From a virus: a DNA stretch of 35,863 nucleotides. The notes under the pieces are model-generated. The model saw nothing but the letters and a program-made list of their open reading frames with translations. It searched no databases and was not told the DNA's origin. Made by a program: the position numbers and the translations under genes. The stretch lies in the UHGV virus genome UHGV-0129071, one strand, 5' to 3'. Below are positions 28,304 through 35,518 of this stretch, piece by piece. How positions within the stretch are numbered: position 1 is the first letter of the stretch; each line of letters begins with the position of its first letter.

Positions 28304-29719
28304 ATGGCTACGTGGCAACAGGGTATTAATTCTGGTGGTTTTCTGGCTGGCATTGGTGCGCAAAACGAGAATGCGCCAAAGGCAAGCGACATTAACGCAA
28401 CGCTTGGTCTGATCCGCGAAAACAATGAACTGGCTCGCTCAGGTGCAAATAACGTTGGTCTGACCGCGTTACGTGGTCTGGCTGGAGTTGCTGATATTTA
28501 TAAGCAGGAACAGCAACAGAAAGCGATTAGTGCGTTCAATAAGGTTCACGCTGATGCATGGGCTTCTGGTGATCCATCGGGACTATTTAAGTTTGCCCAG
28601 GAAAATCCAGCGTTTGTTGCACAGGCACAACAGGCGTTTTCCGGTCTTAATGAGCAGCAACGCAACGATATGGGCGATTTAGCCATGAGGGCTAACGTCG
28701 CTCTTTCTCAGGGACCGGAAGCCTACAGTAAATTCATTACTGACAACAAGGACAGGTTAAATCGCGTGGGTGCGAATGCTGACTGGATGATTCAGACAGG
28801 TATCCAGAATCCAGAGCAGCTATCACACATGCTGACTACTATGACGCTAGGGGCTGTTGGTCCGGATAAAATGCTGGATTATCAGGACAAGATGGTTGGT
28901 CGTGAGATTGACCGAGGCAGGCTGGCAGAGACAATCCGCAGCAATCAGGCTGGTGAAGCACTTCAGGCGAGAGGGCAAAACCTTTCCTATCAGTCAGCAA
29001 TGACTGGGCACAATATCGCTGCACAACGCTTGGCTCTGGATCAGCAAGAGTTCGGGTTTAAGATGCAGCAAGCGCAGGAAAAGGCTCAGCAGTTGATTAG
29101 CGAAGCACCTAAGCTGTCAGTAAACATGGAAAAAGGCATCGAGACGGCTGTAAACAATGCCACAGCATCATCAAACTCAGCCAATTCCATGAGTGCGCTT
29201 GCTCAACAGTTCAGAGCAGAAAAACCAACGACAGGTTTGTTCGGTAACGCACAGAACATGTTCGCAAAACTTACCGGAAGCGATACGACATTGCGTGATT
29301 TGCGCATTCGCCAAAATGCCCTTGTTAACAGTCAGGTTCTTAAATTCCTACCTCCCGGCCCAGCAACGGATAAAGACGTTGAGATCGTTCGACAGGGTGC
29401 GCCAACTGACATGGATAACCCTGAGACGGTCGCAAGATGGCTTGATGCAATGGCAAACCTTGAGCGACGAAACGCGCAGTTTAATGAGTTTAAAGCCGAG
29501 TGGATGAGCGCGAATGGCAACCCTGGACAATCGCGTAATGGCGGTCAGATATTGGGGTTGGATGTTAAAAAAGGTGAATCATTGGGGAGTGCCGTTAAGC
29601 GGTATATGTCAATGAATACTGGCGCAGCGCCAGCACAAGATTCGACGCCTTCAGGAGAACCACGGAATCAGGTTGGATCGTATACCTCAAAATCAGGCAT
29701 TCAATTTACGGTGGAATGA
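28304..29719 (+). CDS. ejection protein (P22 gp20-like)
   Basis: 471 aa, same length as P22 gp20; second ejection protein. Confidence 0.75.
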
Positions 29720-31557
29720 TGAAAGTAACTGCAAACGGTAAGACATTTACCTTTCCTGATGGTACGAGCACCGAAGATATTGGCACCGCCATTGATGAGT
29801 ATTTTGCTGGTCAGGCTGTTCAGCAACAAACAGTTAATCAGGCCAATAATGCACCAACACGGGAAGAACCATCATTGATGCAACAAGCTGGCGATTGGCT
29901 CACTGGTGGTCAAAGTGCAGGGCAAATTGCAGAACAGGCTGGTCGTGGTCTGGTAAACATACCATTTGACGTATTGCAGGGCGGCGCAAGTCTGATTAAT
30001 GCAATCAGTCAGGGGCTTGGTGGACCCAAGGTTTTGGATGATGTTTATCGTCCAGTAGACAGACCGACAGACCCCTACGCGCAAGCCGGTGAAACAATTG
30101 GTGGGTATTTGGTTCCAGGAGTTGGAACGGCAGGAAGCATGGCTATTGGATCACTGGCAGACGCCGCAAATCAGAAAGGCGATTTCGCGCAAAATGCAGC
30201 CAAAAACGCCGGAGTTAACCTTGCCGCTCAGGGGGTTCTTTCCGCAGCAGCAAAGGGAATAGGGCGTGGAGTAACGGCTATAAAAGGTGATATTGCGCCA
30301 GAAGTGGCGAAGAAAATTGCCACATCAGAATCGATGGGCGTGACACCAATGACATCTGATGTAATCCCGCCGAAAAATGCTTTCACTCGCGGCCTTACTC
30401 AGGATGCCGAGGGGGCTTTGCTCGGGACAGGCTCAAAGCGAGCGGAGCAATATGCAACGCGTAGTAAGCTGGTAAGTAATTATTTTGACCGTTTTGGTGA
30501 GTACAACCCTGATGATGTGGTGAAATCTCTGATCACCACGTTAAGGGGACGGAAGGATGCCGCTGGCGCTGTTATCAATGACGTCACCAATAAAATGGGT
30601 AATGCCGCAGTTGATACCACAAACACTATGAATGCTCTGAATACAGCGATCGCAAGACAGGAACGGCTTGGGACGTCTGCCAATCAAAGCCTGCTTACAT
30701 CCTTGCGTAACCTACGTGAAGAATTAGCAAACCCTGCAACTGATTTGGATGTTACGTTTGATCTCTTGCGTCAGCACAGAACAGCATTTAGATCTAATGT
30801 TCAGGGAGATGCTATGGTCTTCCCCAACCAGGCAAAAGCAGCTACCAATATGGTAGAGAATGCAATGTCAAAAGACCTTCGTAACGCAGTTGCTAAAAAC
30901 CTCGGTGCATCAGACGCAGCAAAATACCTTAAAGCAAATTCCGATTATGCAAACGTTTATAATAAGGTGCTTAATAAAAATATTGCTAACAAGCTCAACA
31001 AGGCAAGCAGTGAAGCCAGTCCTGAACTTATAAATACCGTTGTATTAAGCAGAAAACCATCTGACGTGAAACGAATCTGGAGCGCATTGGATGATAAAGG
31101 GAAAGATGCTATGCGTGCAGCTTACGTCAGCAAAATAGCGGAAAAGGCCGGTGACTCTCCAGCCAAGTTCATCACTGAAGTTAATAAGCTGAAATCTCAG
31201 TCAGGCGGTGAAATTTACAACACTATTTTTTCTGGAAAGCACATGAAAGAGCTTGATGCTCTTCATGAAGTTCTACAGCAAACAGCAAGGTCAGACACCG
31301 CAAATGTAGTAACTCAGACGGGGCAATCACAAGCCAACAGGATAAGGACGATTGGCGCAACTGCGACTCTTGGAGTATCAATGGGGCTTGAGGCTGGCTT
31401 TGGTGCAATGATGCGTTTGTATGAGTCCAAAGCCGCAAGGAATATGCTTCTTCGTTTGGCAAACACCAAAGCAGGAACACCAGCCTATGAAAGAGCGCTA
31501 AATAACGCTGCGAATGCCATCAGACCGCTGTTTGCTACTGAGGCAACACAGCAGTAA
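29716..31557 (+). CDS. ejection protein (P22 gp16-like)
   Basis: 613 aa; third ejection protein; ATGA overlap with upstream gene. Confidence 0.75.
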
Positions 31558-31581: not shown

Positions 31582-31971
31582 CTAACATTTTCTTTTTACT
31601 TTTCCAACAAAAGCTTTGGTTGAATCCATATTTCCATAACCGGAAATGGTTTTTGACATTAAAACTGTTCCAGTAGGATGTATTACCCATGAGTCGATAA
31701 CGCGTTGAGTTTCGCCATTCGCGCCGATTCCTATGATGGAGTTTTTAGACAATGCTTTGTAAGCCATGCCGCCCGCATCTGTCCCAGAATATGTGATGCT
31801 GGCATCTTCACCGCTTGTCTTAATGATGAATGTTCCACTAAAACCATCTTCTTCCGGATGGAAATTATTTCGTTCTGAATAGCTTATTCCGCGCATATCT
31901 CCAACGACCCAGCACTCTGCTGTAGCCCCAAAAGATATGAATAAGAACATAGCAGCAAGAAATTGCTTCAC
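31582..31971 (-). CDS. secreted/periplasmic protein with signal peptide (about 129 aa, GTG start)
   Basis: GTG at 31971 preceded by AAGGAGGT SD; N-terminal signal peptide (KQFLAAMFLFISFGATA-EC); AT-rich moron-like region. Confidence 0.45.
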   Translation of the reverse strand: MKQFLAAMFLFISFGATAECWVVGDMRGISYSERNNFHPEEDGFSGTFIIKTSGEDASITYSGTDAGGMAYKALSKNSIIGIGANGETQRVIDSWVIHPTGTVLMSKTISGYGNMDSTKAFVGKVKRKC

Positions 31972-32001
31972 ACCAACCTCCTTAGTTTTGAGCAGGATAC
32001 C

Positions 32002-32367
32002 ATGAAAAAAGTTAACATTGGAAACGTACCAAAGATGCTCGTTCCGCTCTTTGAGAGCGGTACAATTGTGTTTTGTAGAGACTTTCCAGAATGGCAACGC
32101 CTGCATCAAAAACTTGGCGTTGACGTGCATGACTCGGACGCCAACGGAGCGTCTCATACAATGAGTAGCGAGAATGGTGTTTTGCATGTGATAGGCGTGT
32201 TCAATGGCAAACTATCTACTATTGCCCATGAGTGCGCTCACATGGCATTCGATATCTGCTCAAGGGTAGGTGTTGATGTTGAACCAGGAAGAGCCAACGA
32301 GACTTACTGCTACTTAATGAGCAGGCTTGTTGAGTTCTGCGAGCGACATATCAAAAAGCCGGAGTGA
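32002..32367 (+). CDS. small HExxH-motif protein (121 aa), possible minimal zinc metallopeptidase-like
   Basis: ATG 32002; contains IAHECAHMAFDI (HExxH) after predicted beta-rich N-terminus; divergent from the secreted-protein gene. Confidence 0.4.
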   Translation: MKKVNIGNVPKMLVPLFESGTIVFCRDFPEWQRLHQKLGVDVHDSDANGASHTMSSENGVLHVIGVFNGKLSTIAHECAHMAFDICSRVGVDVEPGRANETYCYLMSRLVEFCERHIKKPE

Positions 32368-32380
32368 CCCGGCTTGATTA

Positions 32381-32560
32381 TTACTTTTTGCTGTCTGGAG
32401 TTCGCTTATCCAATACCCAGCCATGACCTGGCTTTGTTGTTGGTGGAAGCCTTTCGTTGTCCTTGACGGTTGCAAAATTGTCTTTCTTACCGCCGCGTGG
32501 GCCAACTTCTTGGTATATTCCGCCGTTTTTTCCTGTGTTTTCACCTGGTTTTTTCGCCAT
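32381..32560 (-). CDS. YjzC-like small protein (59 aa)
   Basis: ATG 32560 with GAGGT SD and own sigma70-like promoter (TTGACT...); motif G.Y.EVGPRGG...TV...LPPT...GHGWVL resembles YjzC family. Confidence 0.45.
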   Translation of the reverse strand: MAKKPGENTGKNGGIYQEVGPRGGKKDNFATVKDNERLPPTTKPGHGWVLDKRTPDSKK

Positions 32561-32650
32561 GATATACCTCAACATACACCCGTTATTGGGCGATTAAATA
32601 TTGATCTCATTTTATAAGTAGTCAATATGGCCCAGGTAAATGCAAAAATT

Positions 32651-32675
32651 AACCCACCTTCAGGTGGGTTTTTTG
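32651..32675. terminator. bidirectional hairpin terminator at mnt 3-prime end
   Basis: AACCCACC-TTCA-GGTGGGTT flanked by A-run upstream and T-run downstream. Confidence 0.5.
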
Positions 32676-32911
32676 TACAAATCCTTCAGCGTATCAAACA
32701 CCATCTTCTTAACAAGTTCAGACTGCTCATCAGCGATGCGTTCCGCATCGTCTCGATAGCCTGAAATTTTGGATGGCTTTGATACGGCATCAGTCACTAT
32801 CTGAACTAATTCTGAATTAAGAGAGCGGCCATTGGATTTGGCTCGCTGTTTTAGTTTTTCCTTTAATTCGTAAGGTAGCCGCAGATTAAATTGCGGGTCA
32901 TCTCTTCCCAT
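32660..32911 (-). CDS. mnt: Mnt repressor (ribbon-helix-helix, Arc/MetJ family)
   Basis: 83-aa ORF MGRDDPQFNLRLPYELKEKLKQRAKSNGRSLNSELVQIV...DAERIADEQSELVKKMVFDTLKDLYKK matches recalled P22 Mnt. Confidence 0.85.
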   Translation of the reverse strand: MGRDDPQFNLRLPYELKEKLKQRAKSNGRSLNSELVQIVTDAVSKPSKISGYRDDAERIADEQSELVKKMVFDTLKDLYKKPT

Positions 32912-32974
32912 TCTTGATGCCTCGCTTTTGTGAGTGGATCGGCATCTTATTATCTGCTGGTTGCATCCTCAATA

Positions 32975-32989
32975 AGACCACAGTGGTCT
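32975..32989. promoter_or_regulatory. Mnt operator-like palindrome
   Basis: AGACCAC-A-GTGGTCT perfect 15-bp palindrome resembling the P22 Omnt core (GGTCCACGGTGGACC) in mnt/tailspike intergenic region. Confidence 0.5.
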
Positions 32990-33057
32990 CTTTGTTTGAT
33001 TAATAATGCATCACTGTGGCAATGCTGCGGCGATTCCTTGTATCTGGAGCAAATTAA

Positions 33058-35196
33058 ATGACAGACATTACAGCCAATGTTGTAGTGAGTATGCCTTCGC
33101 AACTCTTCACTATGGCGCGTTCTTTTAAAGCCGTAGCCAATGGCAAAATTTATATCGGTAAAATTGACACTGATCCTGTAAATACAGAAAACCAGATTCA
33201 GGTCTATGTGGAGAATGAAGACGGTTCTCACGTTCCTGTTTCGCAACCAATAATCATTAACGCTGCTGGATATCCGGTATATAACGGACAGATTGCCAAA
33301 TTCGTTACCGTGCAAGGCCATTCTATGGCTGTTTATGATGCGTATGGTGCGCAGCAGTTCTATTTTCCTAATGTGCTGAAGTATGACCCTGATCAACTAC
33401 GGCAGCAATTAGAAGACCCGGATGGAGCTAAAAAATATCCTGAATTGCAGATATCTCGGTGGAGGGACGATTGTGATGTAAGAGGGTGGGGGGCAAAAGG
33501 CGATGGTATAACAGATGATACATCTGCATTGATCTTGGCTGCAGAATATGCACGAGAATCATCCAAAACATTACGAGCGGAAGGTAATTTTATTATTACG
33601 GAGACATTAAATCTTCGTAATGTCAGCCTCGAAATGACCAATGCTGTTTTTACCATATCCCACTCAGGAATAGGGGTATTGCTTGGCGGGAATGCATCAA
33701 ACCCTAACAACCCAAGACAAAACTTCGGAACGATTATCAGAAATTCTGGTATTTCATCTGAAACGACACCGGATATTCGTATTATCGGGGCAAAAGGGCA
33801 GCATATAAACATTGAGCGTTGCGACTACTTACAGTTATATGCAAATTATAATGCTTCGGTGGCATCGACGGATTATTCAATAGCATACTCAACCTTTAAC
33901 CTGAAAAAGGTCGATACAATTCATTTTCTTGGAGTTGAGAACGGATGGATAAATGAAAACTATTTTTATCTGAATCGTACGAATAATATCATTTTCGCTG
34001 ATAATCCATATCATCATAACCACAATAAGTTTTATGGTGGAACTATGGAGGGGGCAGGTAAAATTGATATTCAAAGAGGTGATAACAATTACTTCTACGG
34101 GTTTCGTTTTGAACGAGATCCATCATCCCAAACTAACCAACAGTTGATAATTAACTTTGGTGAATATACGTGGAATAACTCAATTGAAGCTACATGGTTA
34201 AGTTCTCCTTACTATACAAATGAGCCATACAATCCATCACCTTACACTTATGTCGAGGTAACTGATAATGGCAAGGGGAATGCAGTATTTCATATTCAGG
34301 AAAATATATCCGATGAAGTAACATTGTTTTCTTTAAATGCTAACACCCCATTTATATCCAGTGCTAACAATGGAGAAGTTGGTGTATTAGCATTTCAAAC
34401 AGATGTAGATGGTTTATATAATATCCGTCACCTGGTTTCTTCTAAGTTTGCTTTTATGCGGAATTTTGGGTTGTTATGGGAATCTGGAGATGTACCAGTA
34501 AGAAATGGTGATATGTTTACATTCTCAGCAGATACGGCATCGTTTCGCATTTACCTGTATGCATTAGATGGAGATGGGAATGTCATAACTTCACAAACAG
34601 AAGCAATAACCTCTTCTATGCAATGGGATTCATCTAACCATAGATATGCTACTGTTGCTAACATTTCTTCCATTAAGATCAGGATTAATAATGAAGGGGT
34701 TCCAGTTAGTGCAATTCGTTTAGCTGTGTATTCTGGTGGTAATGTAGCGAATACTGCATTTTCATGGCTATGCTTAACTGGTAGATATTACAAAAATAGC
34801 ACATCCTTGCCAAGGAAAAGCAAAGATAACTTCACCTTAAAACAAGGAAAAGCAATTACTTATTATAGTGATACTGATATTAGTATGGCTAACATTGGTT
34901 CAGGAATTACCTGTTATAAAACCGATTTATCTGAACTCAAAATTAATCTTGTAAGGGGCAGGTATGTAGTGAAATCAATTTCAGGCAGTGAAATATATGT
35001 ATACCAAGGAACAGTCACTTATTACCCTCCATTCAGTGATATCAAATTGGTATATACGGATGGGGTTGAAAATAAATTATTAGATGTGCAAAACATCTCT
35101 TCAGAAAAGATTACTCTTGCAGATACAGTACCATCAGCTATATCTGCAGGTGATTTTGTAGATATTATTGTTACAAAGACGAAATCTATTTTATGA
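33058..35196 (+). CDS. tailspike protein (P22 gp9-type N-terminal head-binding domain, divergent receptor-binding domain)
   Basis: 712 aa; N-terminal about 115 aa ([11 protein letters not shown]...[19 protein letters not shown]...VLKYDPDQ) matches recalled P22/HK620/Sf6 tailspike head-binding domain; remainder differs from P22. Confidence 0.85.
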
Positions 35197-35230
35197 AGTG
35201 TTTATTTATCCTTATGTTAAAGGAGCGATA

Positions 35231-35518
35231 ATGGATATAACACCTTTCCTTCATGCGTTTTGTGCTGTGGCTGCGCAGGTACTGATTGGCCTTTTTACCG
35301 GAAACTGGGCTTACGGGGCGATAGCCGGTTGTACGTTCTTCATTGCGCGTGAACACACCCAGGCAGAATATCGCTGGATTGAAATGTTCGGGCATGGCAA
35401 GCGTATGAATATGCCGTGGTGGGGCGGTTTTGATCCGCGCGTATGGGATGTGGGAAGTTTGTTGGATTTTTCTTTCCCAATTATCGGATGCTTATTGGTA
35501 TGGATTCTTGCATCGTAG
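35231..35518 (+). CDS. hypothetical small membrane protein (95 aa)
   Basis: ATG 35231 with AAGGAG SD; two or three hydrophobic segments; directly after tailspike. Confidence 0.4.
   Translation: MDITPFLHAFCAVAAQVLIGLFTGNWAYGAIAGCTFFIAREHTQAEYRWIEMFGHGKRMNMPWWGGFDPRVWDVGSLLDFSFPIIGCLLVWILAS

Follow-up and report, generated by a model that had tools for sequence, protein, structure and literature searches.

Between the ejection genes and mnt of a P22-like prophage lie three small genes in mixed orientations, and the question raised by this locus is what these genes are and whether they work together. The genes were found in UHGV virus genome UHGV-0129071, a stretch of 35,863 nucleotides that was analyzed as a whole and is called the window here. 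Its sequence is that of an E. coli prophage of the P22-like type (Lederbergvirus). The original prediction described an AT-rich trio in the place that sieA holds in P22, comprising a secreted protein (gene A), an HExxH protein (gene B) and a YjzC-like protein (gene C), and suggested that they could form a small self-contained module. The reading favored here, with a probability of about 0.7, is that the region corresponds to the left half of the already known "ant moron" and comprises three independent units, namely an exclusion-type Hex cargo, an HkcC zincin and orf59a. The features of the region are given in Table 1.

Table 1. Coordinates of the genes and signals in and around the three-gene region of the window
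Feature	Position	Strand	Remarks
Ejection protein gene 16 homologue	29716..31557	+	left boundary of the variable region; 74% identical to P22 gp16 (tblastn)
Gene A, predicted Hex-family secreted protein, 129 aa	31582..31971	-	GTG start; in the sieA slot
Signal peptide of gene A, residues 1-18	31918..31971	-	read from the sequence; A-T-A before E-C-W
Shared 5' leader of the slot gene	31972..32001	-	Shine-Dalgarno AAGGAGG; equals the 30-nt spacer to the hkcC ATG; holds the AGGA ribosome-binding site of hkcC
Counterpart of PsieA	32002..32032	-	within the 31-nt 5' end of hkcC; PsieA is annotated on the homologous 31 nt of the P22-pbi record
Gene B, hkcC, 121 aa	32002..32367	+	late-operon strand; HECAH residues 76-80 (nt 32227-32241); E100 (nt 32299-32301)
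Bidirectional stem-loop terminator	32356..32375		common to the convergent hkcC and orf59a; overlaps the hkcC stop codon; scores on both strands
Gene C, orf59a (P22) or "HkcD" (HK620), 59 aa	32381..32560	-	98% identical to P22 orf59a; phrog_3202
Promoter-like site TTGACT-17-AATATT	32597..32625	-	upstream of orf59a; consensus scan
Stem-loop with T-runs on both strands	32651..32670		3' end of mnt; terminator scan; mosaic boundary
mnt repressor (Arc/Mnt ribbon-helix-helix family)	32660..32911	-	Pfam Arc 2.8e-22, Repressor_Mnt 2.2e-18
Tailspike gene 9 homologue	33058..35196	+	right boundary of the "ant moron"

The locus and its neighbors

Region 31582-32660 forms the left part of what has been published as the "ant moron", located between ejection gene 16 and tailspike gene 9. 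This name was given to the region in a study that listed sieA, hkcC and 59a in P22, described high genetic flux there and found the whole moron to be missing from phages such as Sf6 (PMC2629481). The expectation of an accessory (moron) region was thus borne out. The gene order annotated at the equivalent positions of the P22, HK620 and SE1 records is sieA or hkcB, then hkcC, orf59a and mnt, and an annotated gene 16 stands at the matching position in P22 and HK620. The DNA of the window was 97% identical to P22, HK620 and SE1 from position 31969 onward.

The three open reading frames exist as they were described, except for the start codon of gene A. Other parts of the description did not hold. 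P22 itself carries genes B and C at 97% DNA identity, and only gene A, not the trio, replaces sieA. The AT-richness applies to gene A alone (GC 0.41), while genes B and C (0.46-0.47) are at the window mean of 0.474. The trio proved to consist largely of known P22-group genes: gene B is hkcC and gene C is orf59a/"HkcD" (PMC2629481), both named in P22 or HK620, and gene A belongs to the family of 434 hex.

Among 80 IMG/VR loci, which were picked for highest HkcC identity so that the frequencies are biased, 12 shared gene A with the window, 80 shared hkcC, 70 shared orf59a and 35 shared the mnt allele. The fall from 70/80 to 35/80 loci coincided with the stem-loop at the 3' end of mnt, at the position equivalent to which the HK620 record annotates tMNT. 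The window encoded no Ant homologue, and the sole match to an Arc query was mnt itself, showing that mnt is present without arc or ant. The N-terminal head-binding domain of the tailspike was 76-100% identical to those of P22-group tailspikes, and the window version of the receptor-binding part was found in 0/80 loci. The st313-td/bstA genes of BTP1 were considered as a counterpart of the region and rejected, as they occupy a different locus adjoining cI.

The sieA slot as a site of exchangeable cargo

The minus-strand open reading frame upstream of hkcC was compared in 84 loci (the 80 IMG/VR loci and four annotated records) and belonged to at least 12 unrelated types, which included SieA, a 161-aa lipoprotein, the Hex-like barrel, HkcB and several small transmembrane or secreted proteins. 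The start codon of these cargo genes was almost always located exactly 30 nt from the hkcC ATG. Going toward hkcC, the DNA became invariant at the start codon, the similarity beginning at 31969-31971. The leader was invariant in 11 loci with 11 different cargo genes, and the PsieA counterpart varied at a single base, in a single locus. For P22 sieA, the 85 bp preceding the gene were enough for expression and exclusion in single copy (PMC10883804). By these comparisons, the start codon, its Shine-Dalgarno sequence and leader, and the promoter (PsieA, embedded in hkcC at its 5' end) belong to a conserved block, to which different cargo open reading frames can be joined.

The distance of about 30 bp between the divergent start codons of genes A and B, which had been taken as the mark of a module, was confirmed as exactly 30 nt. 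It is no evidence of a partnership between the two genes, because the same fixed platform serves at least 12 unrelated cargoes.

Gene A and its relation to 434 Hex

Gene A was read from a GTG codon; the 201-aa open reading frame of the mechanical list and a 122-aa RefSeq call use other starts. The secreted protein with a strong Shine-Dalgarno sequence and signal peptide was found as predicted: AAGGAGG is located at 31983-31977, and the protein begins with a Sec-type signal peptide, MKQFLAAMFLFISFGATA followed by ECW. The junction, AxA followed by (E/S)CW, was kept in 434 Hex and in homologues of gene A with identities as low as 46%. The structural model was all-beta, an 8-stranded beta-barrel with one cleavable signal peptide, and placed Cys20 and Cys129 on the first and last predicted barrel strands. 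Scans of Pfam, NCBIfam and PADLOC gave no meaningful match for gene A (only spurious sub-threshold lantibiotic and EutA hits appeared for genes A and B), and the BFVD fold search returned only low-TM uncharacterised matches to the barrel. The fold matches were generic and named no function.

Sequence comparison showed that gene A is a homologue of Hex of phage 434, named for the "heterologous exclusion" of P22. Full-length tblastn matches were obtained to 434 Hex, Sf6 gp38, HK446, HK633 and Sf101, and all of these homologues adjoin cI. Identity to 434 Hex was 27-29% overall (BLASTP 27%, E 4e-12), the hhalign probability was 98.2% (E 5.5e-14, 128 columns), and gene A, 434 Hex and Sf6 gp38 all matched phrog_2651 at E<=1e-58. 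Gene A resembles 434 Hex and Sf6 gp38 in its size, in the signal peptide followed by ECW and in the C-terminal Cys. A second hex copy was searched for in the window and not found.

The hex gene is co-transcribed with cI in lysogens, and Salmonella lysogens of lambda imm434 need an intact hex to exclude P22 (PMC3564112). The two genes differ in location: 434 hex belongs to the PRM operon, where it follows cI, and gene A occupies the sieA slot, within the stretch from gene 16 to gene 9. As with 434 hex, the position of gene A would be expressed from the prophage, which we infer because the 85 bp upstream of gene A are near-identical to the segment from which sieA is driven in P22. Gene A has the slot, the orientation and the promoter, leader and start-codon platform in common with P22 sieA, and both would encode envelope-directed prophage proteins. 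SieA is a polytopic inner-membrane protein with the motif FxRYPxEAxxFNK (PMC10883804), whereas gene A is predicted to encode a soluble-type secreted beta-barrel. An assignment of gene A to SieA types A-C was rejected: P22 SieA gave no tblastn match in the window, gene A has no sequence similarity to SieA, and it has a single cleavable signal peptide and an all-beta model.

By analogy with 434 Hex, gene A most likely encodes a prophage-expressed exclusion protein, and the exclusion function that had been offered as one option for the module is plausible for this gene. Its product, most likely synthesized constitutively from the prophage, would be exported by way of the Sec signal peptide and form a small 8-stranded beta-barrel in the periplasm. 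It would protect the lysogen from superinfecting P22-like phages, just as 434 Hex acts against P22 and as SieA, also encoded in this slot, does. Such protection would most probably come about by interference with the trans-periplasmic conduit of ejection proteins.

HkcC and its zincin signature

The plus-strand gene for a 121-aa HExxH protein was present as predicted. Its product was 98-100% identical in amino acids to HK620 HkcC, to an unannotated open reading frame of P22 (99%) and to SE1 orf64, all located at the same position; these are the same gene as gene B, with no differences, and fall in phrog_1365. The gene itself is therefore already known from P22 and HK620, where it was given only as "unknown function" (PMC2629481). 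The present analysis adds the zincin signature and shows how large the family is.

The HExxH motif had been thought unlikely to arise by chance in a protein this short. This did not stand, since about 0.39 occurrences were expected against one seen in the six-frame open reading frames of at least 100 aa in the window; the significance of the motif comes from its conservation among homologues. H76, E77 and H80 were invariant in 19 close and 107 distant homologues, and HExxH was kept in 141/145 representatives of the family. In the family alignment E100 was found in 123/124 sequences, G49 in 123/124, Y104 in 117/124 and N99, which precedes E100, in 90/124. The E100 column had played no part in the selection of homologues. 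The family comprised 514 clusters at E<=1e-3, nearly all of 105-140 aa. All gene contexts examined were those of phages, on the late or structural strand, with some homologues located between lysis and terminase genes or within head and tail modules.

A zincin-like fold was predicted by AlphaFold (pLDDT 89.3) with the topology b-b-a-b-b-a(HExxH)-a(E100), in which HExxH lies on helix 71-88 and E100 opens helix 100-116. The alignment and the model together point to a gluzincin-type HExxH-x19-E motif with essentially invariant H76, E77, H80 and E100 in a zincin-like fold. As in gluzincins of the thermolysin type (HExxH...E) and "minigluzincins", HExxH stands on a helix and a downstream N-E Glu at the start of the next one, and the beta-sheet and backing helix are N-terminal in a domain of about 120 aa. 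The best fold matches were M3 and M9 gluzincins, and they were weak. A PDB search with the profile of the close family found no solved structure, and one with the wide profile gave only weak astacin-type matches. HkcC matched no family in Pfam, NCBIfam or PADLOC.

The HkcC family also resembles the DNA-dependent SprT-like/Wss1 metalloproteases and the repressor-cleaving ImmA/IrrE (M78) proteases, which are likewise small, zincin-like, carry HExxH and are common in mobile elements. Pfam SprT-like was touched by 2/107 family members (E 1e-4), and some members have Lys-rich tails. The gene B protein itself, however, matches neither SprT-like nor ImmA/IrrE, and its third conserved residue is Glu, not His. 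It neighbors a repressor/antirepressor module, yet without an adjacent cognate Xre-type repressor. PhageMetallopep (PF18894), encoded near hkcC homologues in two contexts, was rejected as a relative (hhalign probability 2.3%).

The hkcC product would thus be a cytoplasmic minimal zincin, with HExxH on one helix and, 20 residues past the second His, a Glu that starts the next, and most likely a small zinc metallopeptidase made late in infection. The family is a candidate for a new minimal metallopeptidase family. No partner was shared among the distant phages, as the flanking and often translationally coupled open reading frames were mutually unrelated (they included a phrog_886 protein labelled "ABC transporter ATP-binding subunit", an exonuclease and unknowns). 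The window held no second hkcC copy, and a literature search gave no link of HExxH phage proteins to anti-defence. The N-terminus of ejection protein gp7 is processed by host oligopeptidase A (PMC4992974), and a relation of HkcC to this processing is kept only as speculation, since members of the family occur in phages without P22-type ejection genes and the moron as a whole is missing from phages such as Sf6 (PMC2629481).

orf59a and its flanking signals

Gene C scored 19.1-19.4 bits against Pfam YjzC (PF14168), below the gathering cut-off of 25. Its YjzC-likeness was supported by intermediate sequences and a motif: phmmer searches from gene C reached PF14168-annotated proteins (E 1e-6 to 5e-4), 19/29 aligned homologues matched PF14168 at E<0.01, and KPG...YQEVGPRGG...LPPT (KPG...G.YQEVGPRGG...LPPT) was shared with PF14168-positive proteins. 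P5, G6, G14, G20, P21, R22, G23, T31 and P39 were invariant in the alignment of homologues, some of which are named "YjzC family protein" in UniRef and in a Clostridium phage record. By these sequence comparisons gene C is a relative of the YjzC family. A literature search on YjzC returned nothing functional.

The bidirectional terminator predicted for gene C was recovered, and corresponds to the annotated bidirectional terminator tORF59A of HK620 and t-mnt of P22. For the sigma70-like promoter the outcome was mixed. The site is present, but alone it is not above chance, with 1 found against 3.0 expected in shuffles; it lies within the block 32400-32649, which is conserved with orf59a in 70/80 loci. 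Taken together, orf59a would encode a YjzC-family mini-protein, convergent with hkcC over a shared terminator and probably with its own promoter.

Alternative readings

For gene A, the mechanism published for 434 Hex would have the protein remain in the cytoplasm and impede the RecA-stimulated self-cleavage of the prophage repressor, which would stabilize lysogeny and bring about exclusion only as a by-product. Induction of hex- lambda imm434 lysogens was 30-fold higher in recA+ hosts, and in vitro a 61-residue Hex fragment kept the 434 and P22 repressors from being cleaved (PMC3564112). We nevertheless regard this mechanism as improbable for gene A, as the anti-RecA activity is hard to reconcile with the predicted export. 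A canonical Sec signal peptide and, after it, a conserved Cys are present in Hex, Sf6 gp38 and gene A alike, with the C-terminal Cys on the neighboring barrel strand, and the active fragment would be a piece of the barrel. The lethality of full-length Hex over-expression would be explained by clogged secretion machinery. In addition, gene A occupies a slot of envelope-acting exclusion genes, in which nearly all alternative cargoes carry export or membrane signals. There is also little probability that gene A is a moron for host fitness or virulence, for instance a ligand-binding barrel or a PliC/MliC-like protein that inhibits lysozyme or lytic transglycosylase in the periplasm. The structural matches that might suggest it were all generic to the fold, Pfam MliC and PliC gave no match at E<=1, and the sole functional datum for the Hex family is exclusion of a phage (P22), reported for 434 Hex alone (PMC3564112). 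An exported exclusion protein is the preferred reading of gene A.

That genes A, B and C form one module, such as an exclusion system of three parts or a protease with an inhibitor or target, is scarcely credible. The genes are adjacent, with the 30-nt spacing of A and B and terminators on both sides of C, and the full trio with mnt was found at >=98% in 11 E. coli genomes. The trio was nevertheless no unit across the 80 related P22-like loci: gene A accompanied hkcC in only 12-13 of them, where at least 11 other unrelated cargoes take its place, and orf59a did so in 70. Outside these loci a 62% homologue of gene A was the sole gene between genes 16 and 9, without hkcC or orf59a, the distant relatives 434 Hex and Sf6 gp38 adjoin cI, and P22 SieA works alone from the slot (PMC10883804). 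PADLOC matched none of the three genes to any model at E<=1. A narrower pairing of B and C is unlikely too, in which HkcC would be a protease of the immI/antirepressor module with the YjzC-like protein as partner, substrate or inhibitor, or would act on the repressor like ImmA/IrrE-type metalloproteases. Prophages of Xenorhabdus and Proteus retain the convergent genes, hkcC (B) with 62-63% and the 59-aa gene (C) with 77-79% identity, and there, in siphovirus-type prophages, an hkcC-59a-(mnt/arc)-ant block lies between the tail chaperone and tape-measure genes. An orf59a-type gene also stands beside a 43% HkcC homologue, and orf59a follows hkcC in 70/80 loci. However, hkcC occurs without orf59a in the other 10, orf59a homologues of about 73% are found in other mobile elements without hkcC, homologues are also found in Gram-positive phages, and the more distant HkcC-family members have neither a 59-aa neighbor nor a common partner; the action on a repressor is further opposed by the lack of a sequence match to ImmA/IrrE (M78). 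Finally, hkcC might be kept mainly as cis-acting DNA, as PsieA, terminator and homologous "linker" for cassette exchange, with an inactive or irrelevant product. PsieA and the terminator do lie inside the open reading frame, and HkcC is 99-100% identical in amino acids across phages whose gp16 spans 30-99% identity. Such near-identity (>=99%) across otherwise mosaic phages might be due in part to recent recombination and to the promoter and terminator within the gene, and not to selection on the enzyme. The idea is very improbable, as 514 divergent clusters keep HExxH and E100, some members of the family occur at quite different positions without PsieA, and the AlphaFold model is confident. 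Three independent units remain the favored reading of the region.

Implications for P22-like phages

The trio is not a new defence or toxin module, and the region is an ordinary one with some useful new annotation: three "hypothetical proteins" become a Hex-family exclusion candidate, a zincin-like hkcC and a YjzC-family orf59a. For decades hkcC has been unannotated in P22, and it now falls in a large phage-only family with an invariant HExxH...E and no Pfam entry. The 434 hex product appears from prediction to be an exported beta-barrel, which conflicts with the only published mechanism.

A wider joint reading is possible although doubtful. In it, the sieA locus would be a plug-and-play platform, with a fixed promoter, leader, Shine-Dalgarno sequence and start codon in or beside hkcC, on which at least 12 unrelated envelope proteins are swapped as superinfection-exclusion devices; the Hex cargo would be a soluble periplasmic barrel blocking the gp7/gp20/gp16 conduit, and HkcC would found a new phage zinc peptidase family of about 120 aa. 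If this were true, the block of the conduit by the Hex cargo would be an exclusion mechanism distinct from that of SieA, and the published cytoplasmic anti-RecA role of 434 Hex would need re-examination. The cargoes of the sieA slot offer a ready list of candidate exclusion proteins, testable as SieA was.

Layout of the region

The window was identified as a P22-like (Lederbergvirus) prophage. Its gene content comprises a lambdoid early region, a cassette for lysis, genes for terminase, portal, coat and ejection proteins, and one for the tailspike. A surrounding segment of 1.7 kb displayed 98-99% identity to prophages of several E. coli chromosomes, with partial matches to P22, HK620, SE1 and ST160. 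The epsilon34 genome paper gave the name 'ant moron' to the entire stretch from gene 16 to gene 9 (PMC2629481), and the whole region studied here is this known ant moron of P22-like phages.

The original prediction described genes A, B and C as an AT-rich trio. Its ORFs and signals at 31582-32660 were real, except that the start of gene A was corrected (the gene ends at 31971; a longer ORF of 201 aa arose from mechanical ORF listing and is an artefact). Noticeable AT-richness holds for gene A alone (GC 0.41, against 0.474 for the window); genes B and C have a GC of 0.46-0.47. The sigma70-like promoter at gene C is present as a sequence, but the number of such elements was not above shuffle expectation.

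Features of the region and of the related blocks in other prophages (L005 and L006, fetched loci with their own coordinates)
Feature	Position	Strand	Remarks
Gene A	31582..31971	minus	GTG start 5 nt after AAGGAGG; 129 aa, N-terminus MKQFLAAMFLFISFGATA/ECW
Gene B (hkcC)	32002..32367	plus	121 aa; HECAH = residues 76-80
Stem-loop	32356-32375	both	terminator score on each strand
Gene C (orf59a)	32381..32560	minus	59 aa
Promoter-like element	32625-32597	minus	TTGACT-17-AATATT
Second stem-loop	32651-32670		
mnt	32660..32911	minus	
Tailspike gene	from 33058		
Block hkcC-orf59a-Mnt/Arc-antirepressor	L005:5383-10481		Xenorhabdus hominickii
Block hkcC-orf59a-Mnt/Arc-antirepressor	L006:4431-8837		Proteus penneri

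From 31969 rightwards, the DNA was 97% identical to P22. The plus-strand ORF is annotated as hkcC in the HK620 record, and the small minus-strand ORF is noted there as 'may encode HkcD; similar to P22'; its P22 name is orf59a, to which gene C displayed 98% identity. P22 itself carries the hkcC ORF (99% amino-acid identity), unannotated in several P22 records, where the sieA promoter and the mnt terminator are marked inside it instead. Genes B and C, thought to match no named phage function, are hence the P22/HK620 genes hkcC and orf59a, named yet uncharacterised.

In the window, mnt is found without arc or ant (32660-33057). The stretch separating mnt from the tailspike gene contains a perfect palindrome, AGACCAC-A-GTGGTCT (32975-32989), possibly a leftover Mnt-type operator now regulating mnt alone. 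The receptor-binding part of the tailspike gene (33400-35196) has a very low GC of 0.37; beyond about 33500 it was found at 70% identity or more in none of the 80 related loci, and the closest E. coli prophages encode a longer tailspike gene (2946 bp) at the same position. These differences suggest a different O-antigen specificity. A plus-strand ORF of 116 aa (35168-35518) overlaps the end of the tailspike gene, and its hydrophobic product (MDITPFLHAFCAVAAQVLIGLF...) may be a membrane protein of an O-antigen-modification or conversion region.

Exchangeable cargo in the sieA slot

A total of 80 IMG/VR loci carrying hkcC and four annotated records were compared by locating reference proteins in each. 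The identity of hkcC was 99-100% in all of them. Among the 80 loci, orf59a followed hkcC in 70 and the mnt allele of the window was present in 35, while gene A was detected in only 12-13, so that the three genes do not form a unit. At least 12 unrelated types of minus-strand ORF alternated directly upstream of hkcC, including SieA, HkcB, the gene A type, a lipoprotein of 161 aa, a protein of the SE1/ST160 type that combines a transmembrane segment with a coiled coil, several proteins of 62-149 aa with a transmembrane segment or signal peptide, and one apparently cytoplasmic protein. In most of these cargoes a signal peptide, a lipobox or a transmembrane segment is present.

The divergent starts of genes A and B, 30 bp apart, had been taken as the sign of a self-contained module. 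The same spacing recurred for nearly all cargoes, with exactly 30 nt between the cargo start and the hkcC ATG; the lipoprotein, with its ATG slightly shifted, is the one exception. When 11 loci with 11 cargoes were aligned, the sequence left of the start codon was unalignable, and that from 31969-31971 rightwards was invariant through the Shine-Dalgarno sequence and into hkcC. The mosaic junction of the slot is located exactly at the cargo start codon. Start position, Shine-Dalgarno sequence, leader and promoter region are common to the at least 12 unrelated cargoes (window 31969-32032; fetched loci L001-L004 and L008-L087). According to the P22 record, the sieA promoter lies in the first 31 nt of hkcC, and in P22 a lone chromosomal copy of sieA with 85 bp of upstream sequence is enough to exclude fully (PMC10883804). 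Therefore, the divergent arrangement is a fixed expression platform with exchangeable cargo rather than a sign of cooperation between A and B. Independent support against the trio as a unit came from more distant relatives of gene A: in another phage, a 62% homologue alone separates gene 16 from the tailspike gene, and a 46% homologue adjoins a resolvase gene on a short contig. The sieA slot accepts many alternative cargoes, gene A among them.

Gene A is related to Hex

Homologues of gene A were sought by translated search of phage genomes. Close copies were found in Salmonella phages Emek and ST-35, and full-length matches of 27-28% in 434, lambda imm434, HK446, HK633, Sf6 (gene 38) and Sf101; each of these more distant matches directly follows the repressor gene cI. 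When the profile of the gene A family was compared with 434 Hex, the probability was 98.2% (E 5.5e-14, 128 columns), and gene A, Hex and Sf6 gp38 each matched phrog_2651 at E<=1e-58. All three proteins have a signal peptide, begin their mature part with (S/A)-ECW and carry ...FVG.V...C at the C-terminus. By sequence comparison, gene A is thus a relative of 434 Hex, in the family of a named exclusion gene. The AlphaFold model (pLDDT 85.5) displayed an eight-stranded antiparallel barrel with Cys20 and Cys129 on the first and last strands. Judged against the general traits of outer-membrane proteins, the product is probably a soluble periplasmic barrel and not an outer-membrane one, since several strands are only 6-8 residues long, a C-terminal aromatic residue is absent, the Cys pair is conserved and the mature protein has 111 residues. 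A canonical Sec signal peptide (MIRIAALLSILLTTSANS/ECW) and the C-terminal Cys are likewise present in 434 Hex (locus L109:1501-1905) and Sf6 gp38 (locus L110:1501-1905).

Hex stands for 'heterologous exclusion': superinfecting P22 is excluded by Salmonella lambda imm434 lysogens and not by hex- lysogens, and in the lysogen hex and cI share a transcript (PMC3564112). We infer that gene A would act in the periplasm on the ejection-protein conduit. The sole biochemical study of Hex proposed a different mechanism, in which a fragment of Hex acts in the cytoplasm and hinders the repressor cleavage stimulated by RecA (PMC3564112). We ranked this lower because the export signal is conserved in the family, whose members are predicted from the model to be exported eight-stranded barrels; such export sits badly with a cytoplasmic RecA-blocking role. 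Predicted export may also explain why over-produced full-length Hex is lethal (PMC3564112).

hkcC and orf59a travel with immI

All HkcC-family contexts examined were phage or prophage, with the gene on the late or structural strand: between lysis and terminase genes (a lambdoid phage, ST104 and mEp554), behind the coat gene of a phage whose head module is of P22 type, upstream of a terminase region, or adjoining ParB-like genes. The close subfamily differs from this pattern. In Xenorhabdus and Proteus prophages, hkcC (62-63%) is followed by a convergent 59-aa gene (77-79%) and then by Mnt/Arc-like and antirepressor-like genes; these prophages are of siphovirus type, and the block is inserted between their tail-chaperone and tape-measure genes. 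The 59-aa neighbour is also kept beside a 43% HkcC homologue. Thus hkcC, orf59a and the repressor/antirepressor module immI travel together as a moron, and the ant moron moves between unrelated virion-gene backbones. A functional link of hkcC with orf59a or immI could underlie this co-travel, but simple linkage could equally account for it and we consider such a link unlikely. No common partner gene was found among the neighbours of the more distant HkcC-family members examined, and copies of orf59a at about 73% stand alone as small genes in further mobile-element settings that lack hkcC.

A second hkcC-type allele (38-39% identity, same PHROG) was observed in ST104 (orf47, L111:2501-2890), phage L and g341c; in Salmonella P22-like phages the ST104-type allele is flanked by lysis/KilA-N genes and dec/small-terminase genes. 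No second hkcC copy was found in the window. There, hkcC lies downstream of gene 16 with an AGGA ribosome-binding site only and no promoter of its own. The antiterminated late transcript must cross this region on its way to gene 9 (PMC2629481), and hkcC is presumably translated from it.

For gene C, the label 'YjzC-like' was correct as a family relationship and at that level only, judging from its sequence. Its YjzC (PF14168) score was 19.1-19.4 bits, under the Pfam threshold of 25 bits, and its homologues grade into PF14168-positive proteins with a common invariant core, KPG...G.YQEVGPRGG...T...LPPT. The label 'YjzC family' is also given to homologues in UniRef and in a Clostridium phage record. 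Functional literature on YjzC or orf59a was not found.

HkcC carries a zincin signature

The HExxH motif of HkcC had been considered unlikely by chance, but 0.39 were expected and one was seen among the long ORFs of the window, roughly a chance level, so the motif must be weighed by its conservation, which was confirmed. In 19 homologues, down to 43% identity, H76, E77, C78 and H80 were invariant and N99-E100-T101 nearly so. The family comprised 514 cluster representatives in an exhaustive profile search (E<=1e-3), almost all 105-140 aa long. HExxH was present in 141 of 145 newly retrieved representatives; of the exceptions, three were fragments or frameshifted and one had HKAAH instead. In a 124-sequence alignment, E100 (123/124), G49 (123/124) and Y104 (117/124) were kept, none of these columns having been used to select the sequences. 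Among 107 sequences with 24-44% identity to the query, H76, E77, H80 and E100 were the sole invariant columns.

The AlphaFold model (pLDDT 89.3) consists of two short strands, a helix, a beta-hairpin and a long helix (71-88) carrying HExxH; a further helix (100-116) opens with E100. As modelled, the layout is that of a zincin with a gluzincin-type third ligand 20 residues past the second His, the spacing found in thermolysin. Ligand geometry, zinc binding and catalysis are predicted on this basis. The family profile matched myroilysin and astacins weakly (E 0.02-0.2) and 2 of the 107 members touched Pfam SprT-like; these connections to established peptidases are weak, though they agree with one another. 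No Pfam, NCBIfam or PADLOC family was found for it. No relationship to PhageMetallopep (PF18894) was detectable (hhalign probability 2.3%); a PF18894 gene is located near hkcC homologues in two unrelated contexts (loci L092:1330-1968 and L099:10122-10775). Some distant members (HkcC-family proteins P0087, P0094, P0158 and P0178) have Lys/Ala/Glu-rich C-terminal tails of 40-60 residues with a basic motif at the end (for example ...RYKRG or ...SFKRW); these tails resemble nucleic-acid-binding ones.

Taken together, the original prediction was largely correct in observation and mostly wrong in interpretation. The analysis places hkcC in a large phage-only family whose HExxH-x19-E signature is invariant, recognises a Hex-type protein in the sieA slot and defines the exact architecture of this slot, in which the cargo junction is the start codon. 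It adds the observation that proteins of the Hex family look exported.
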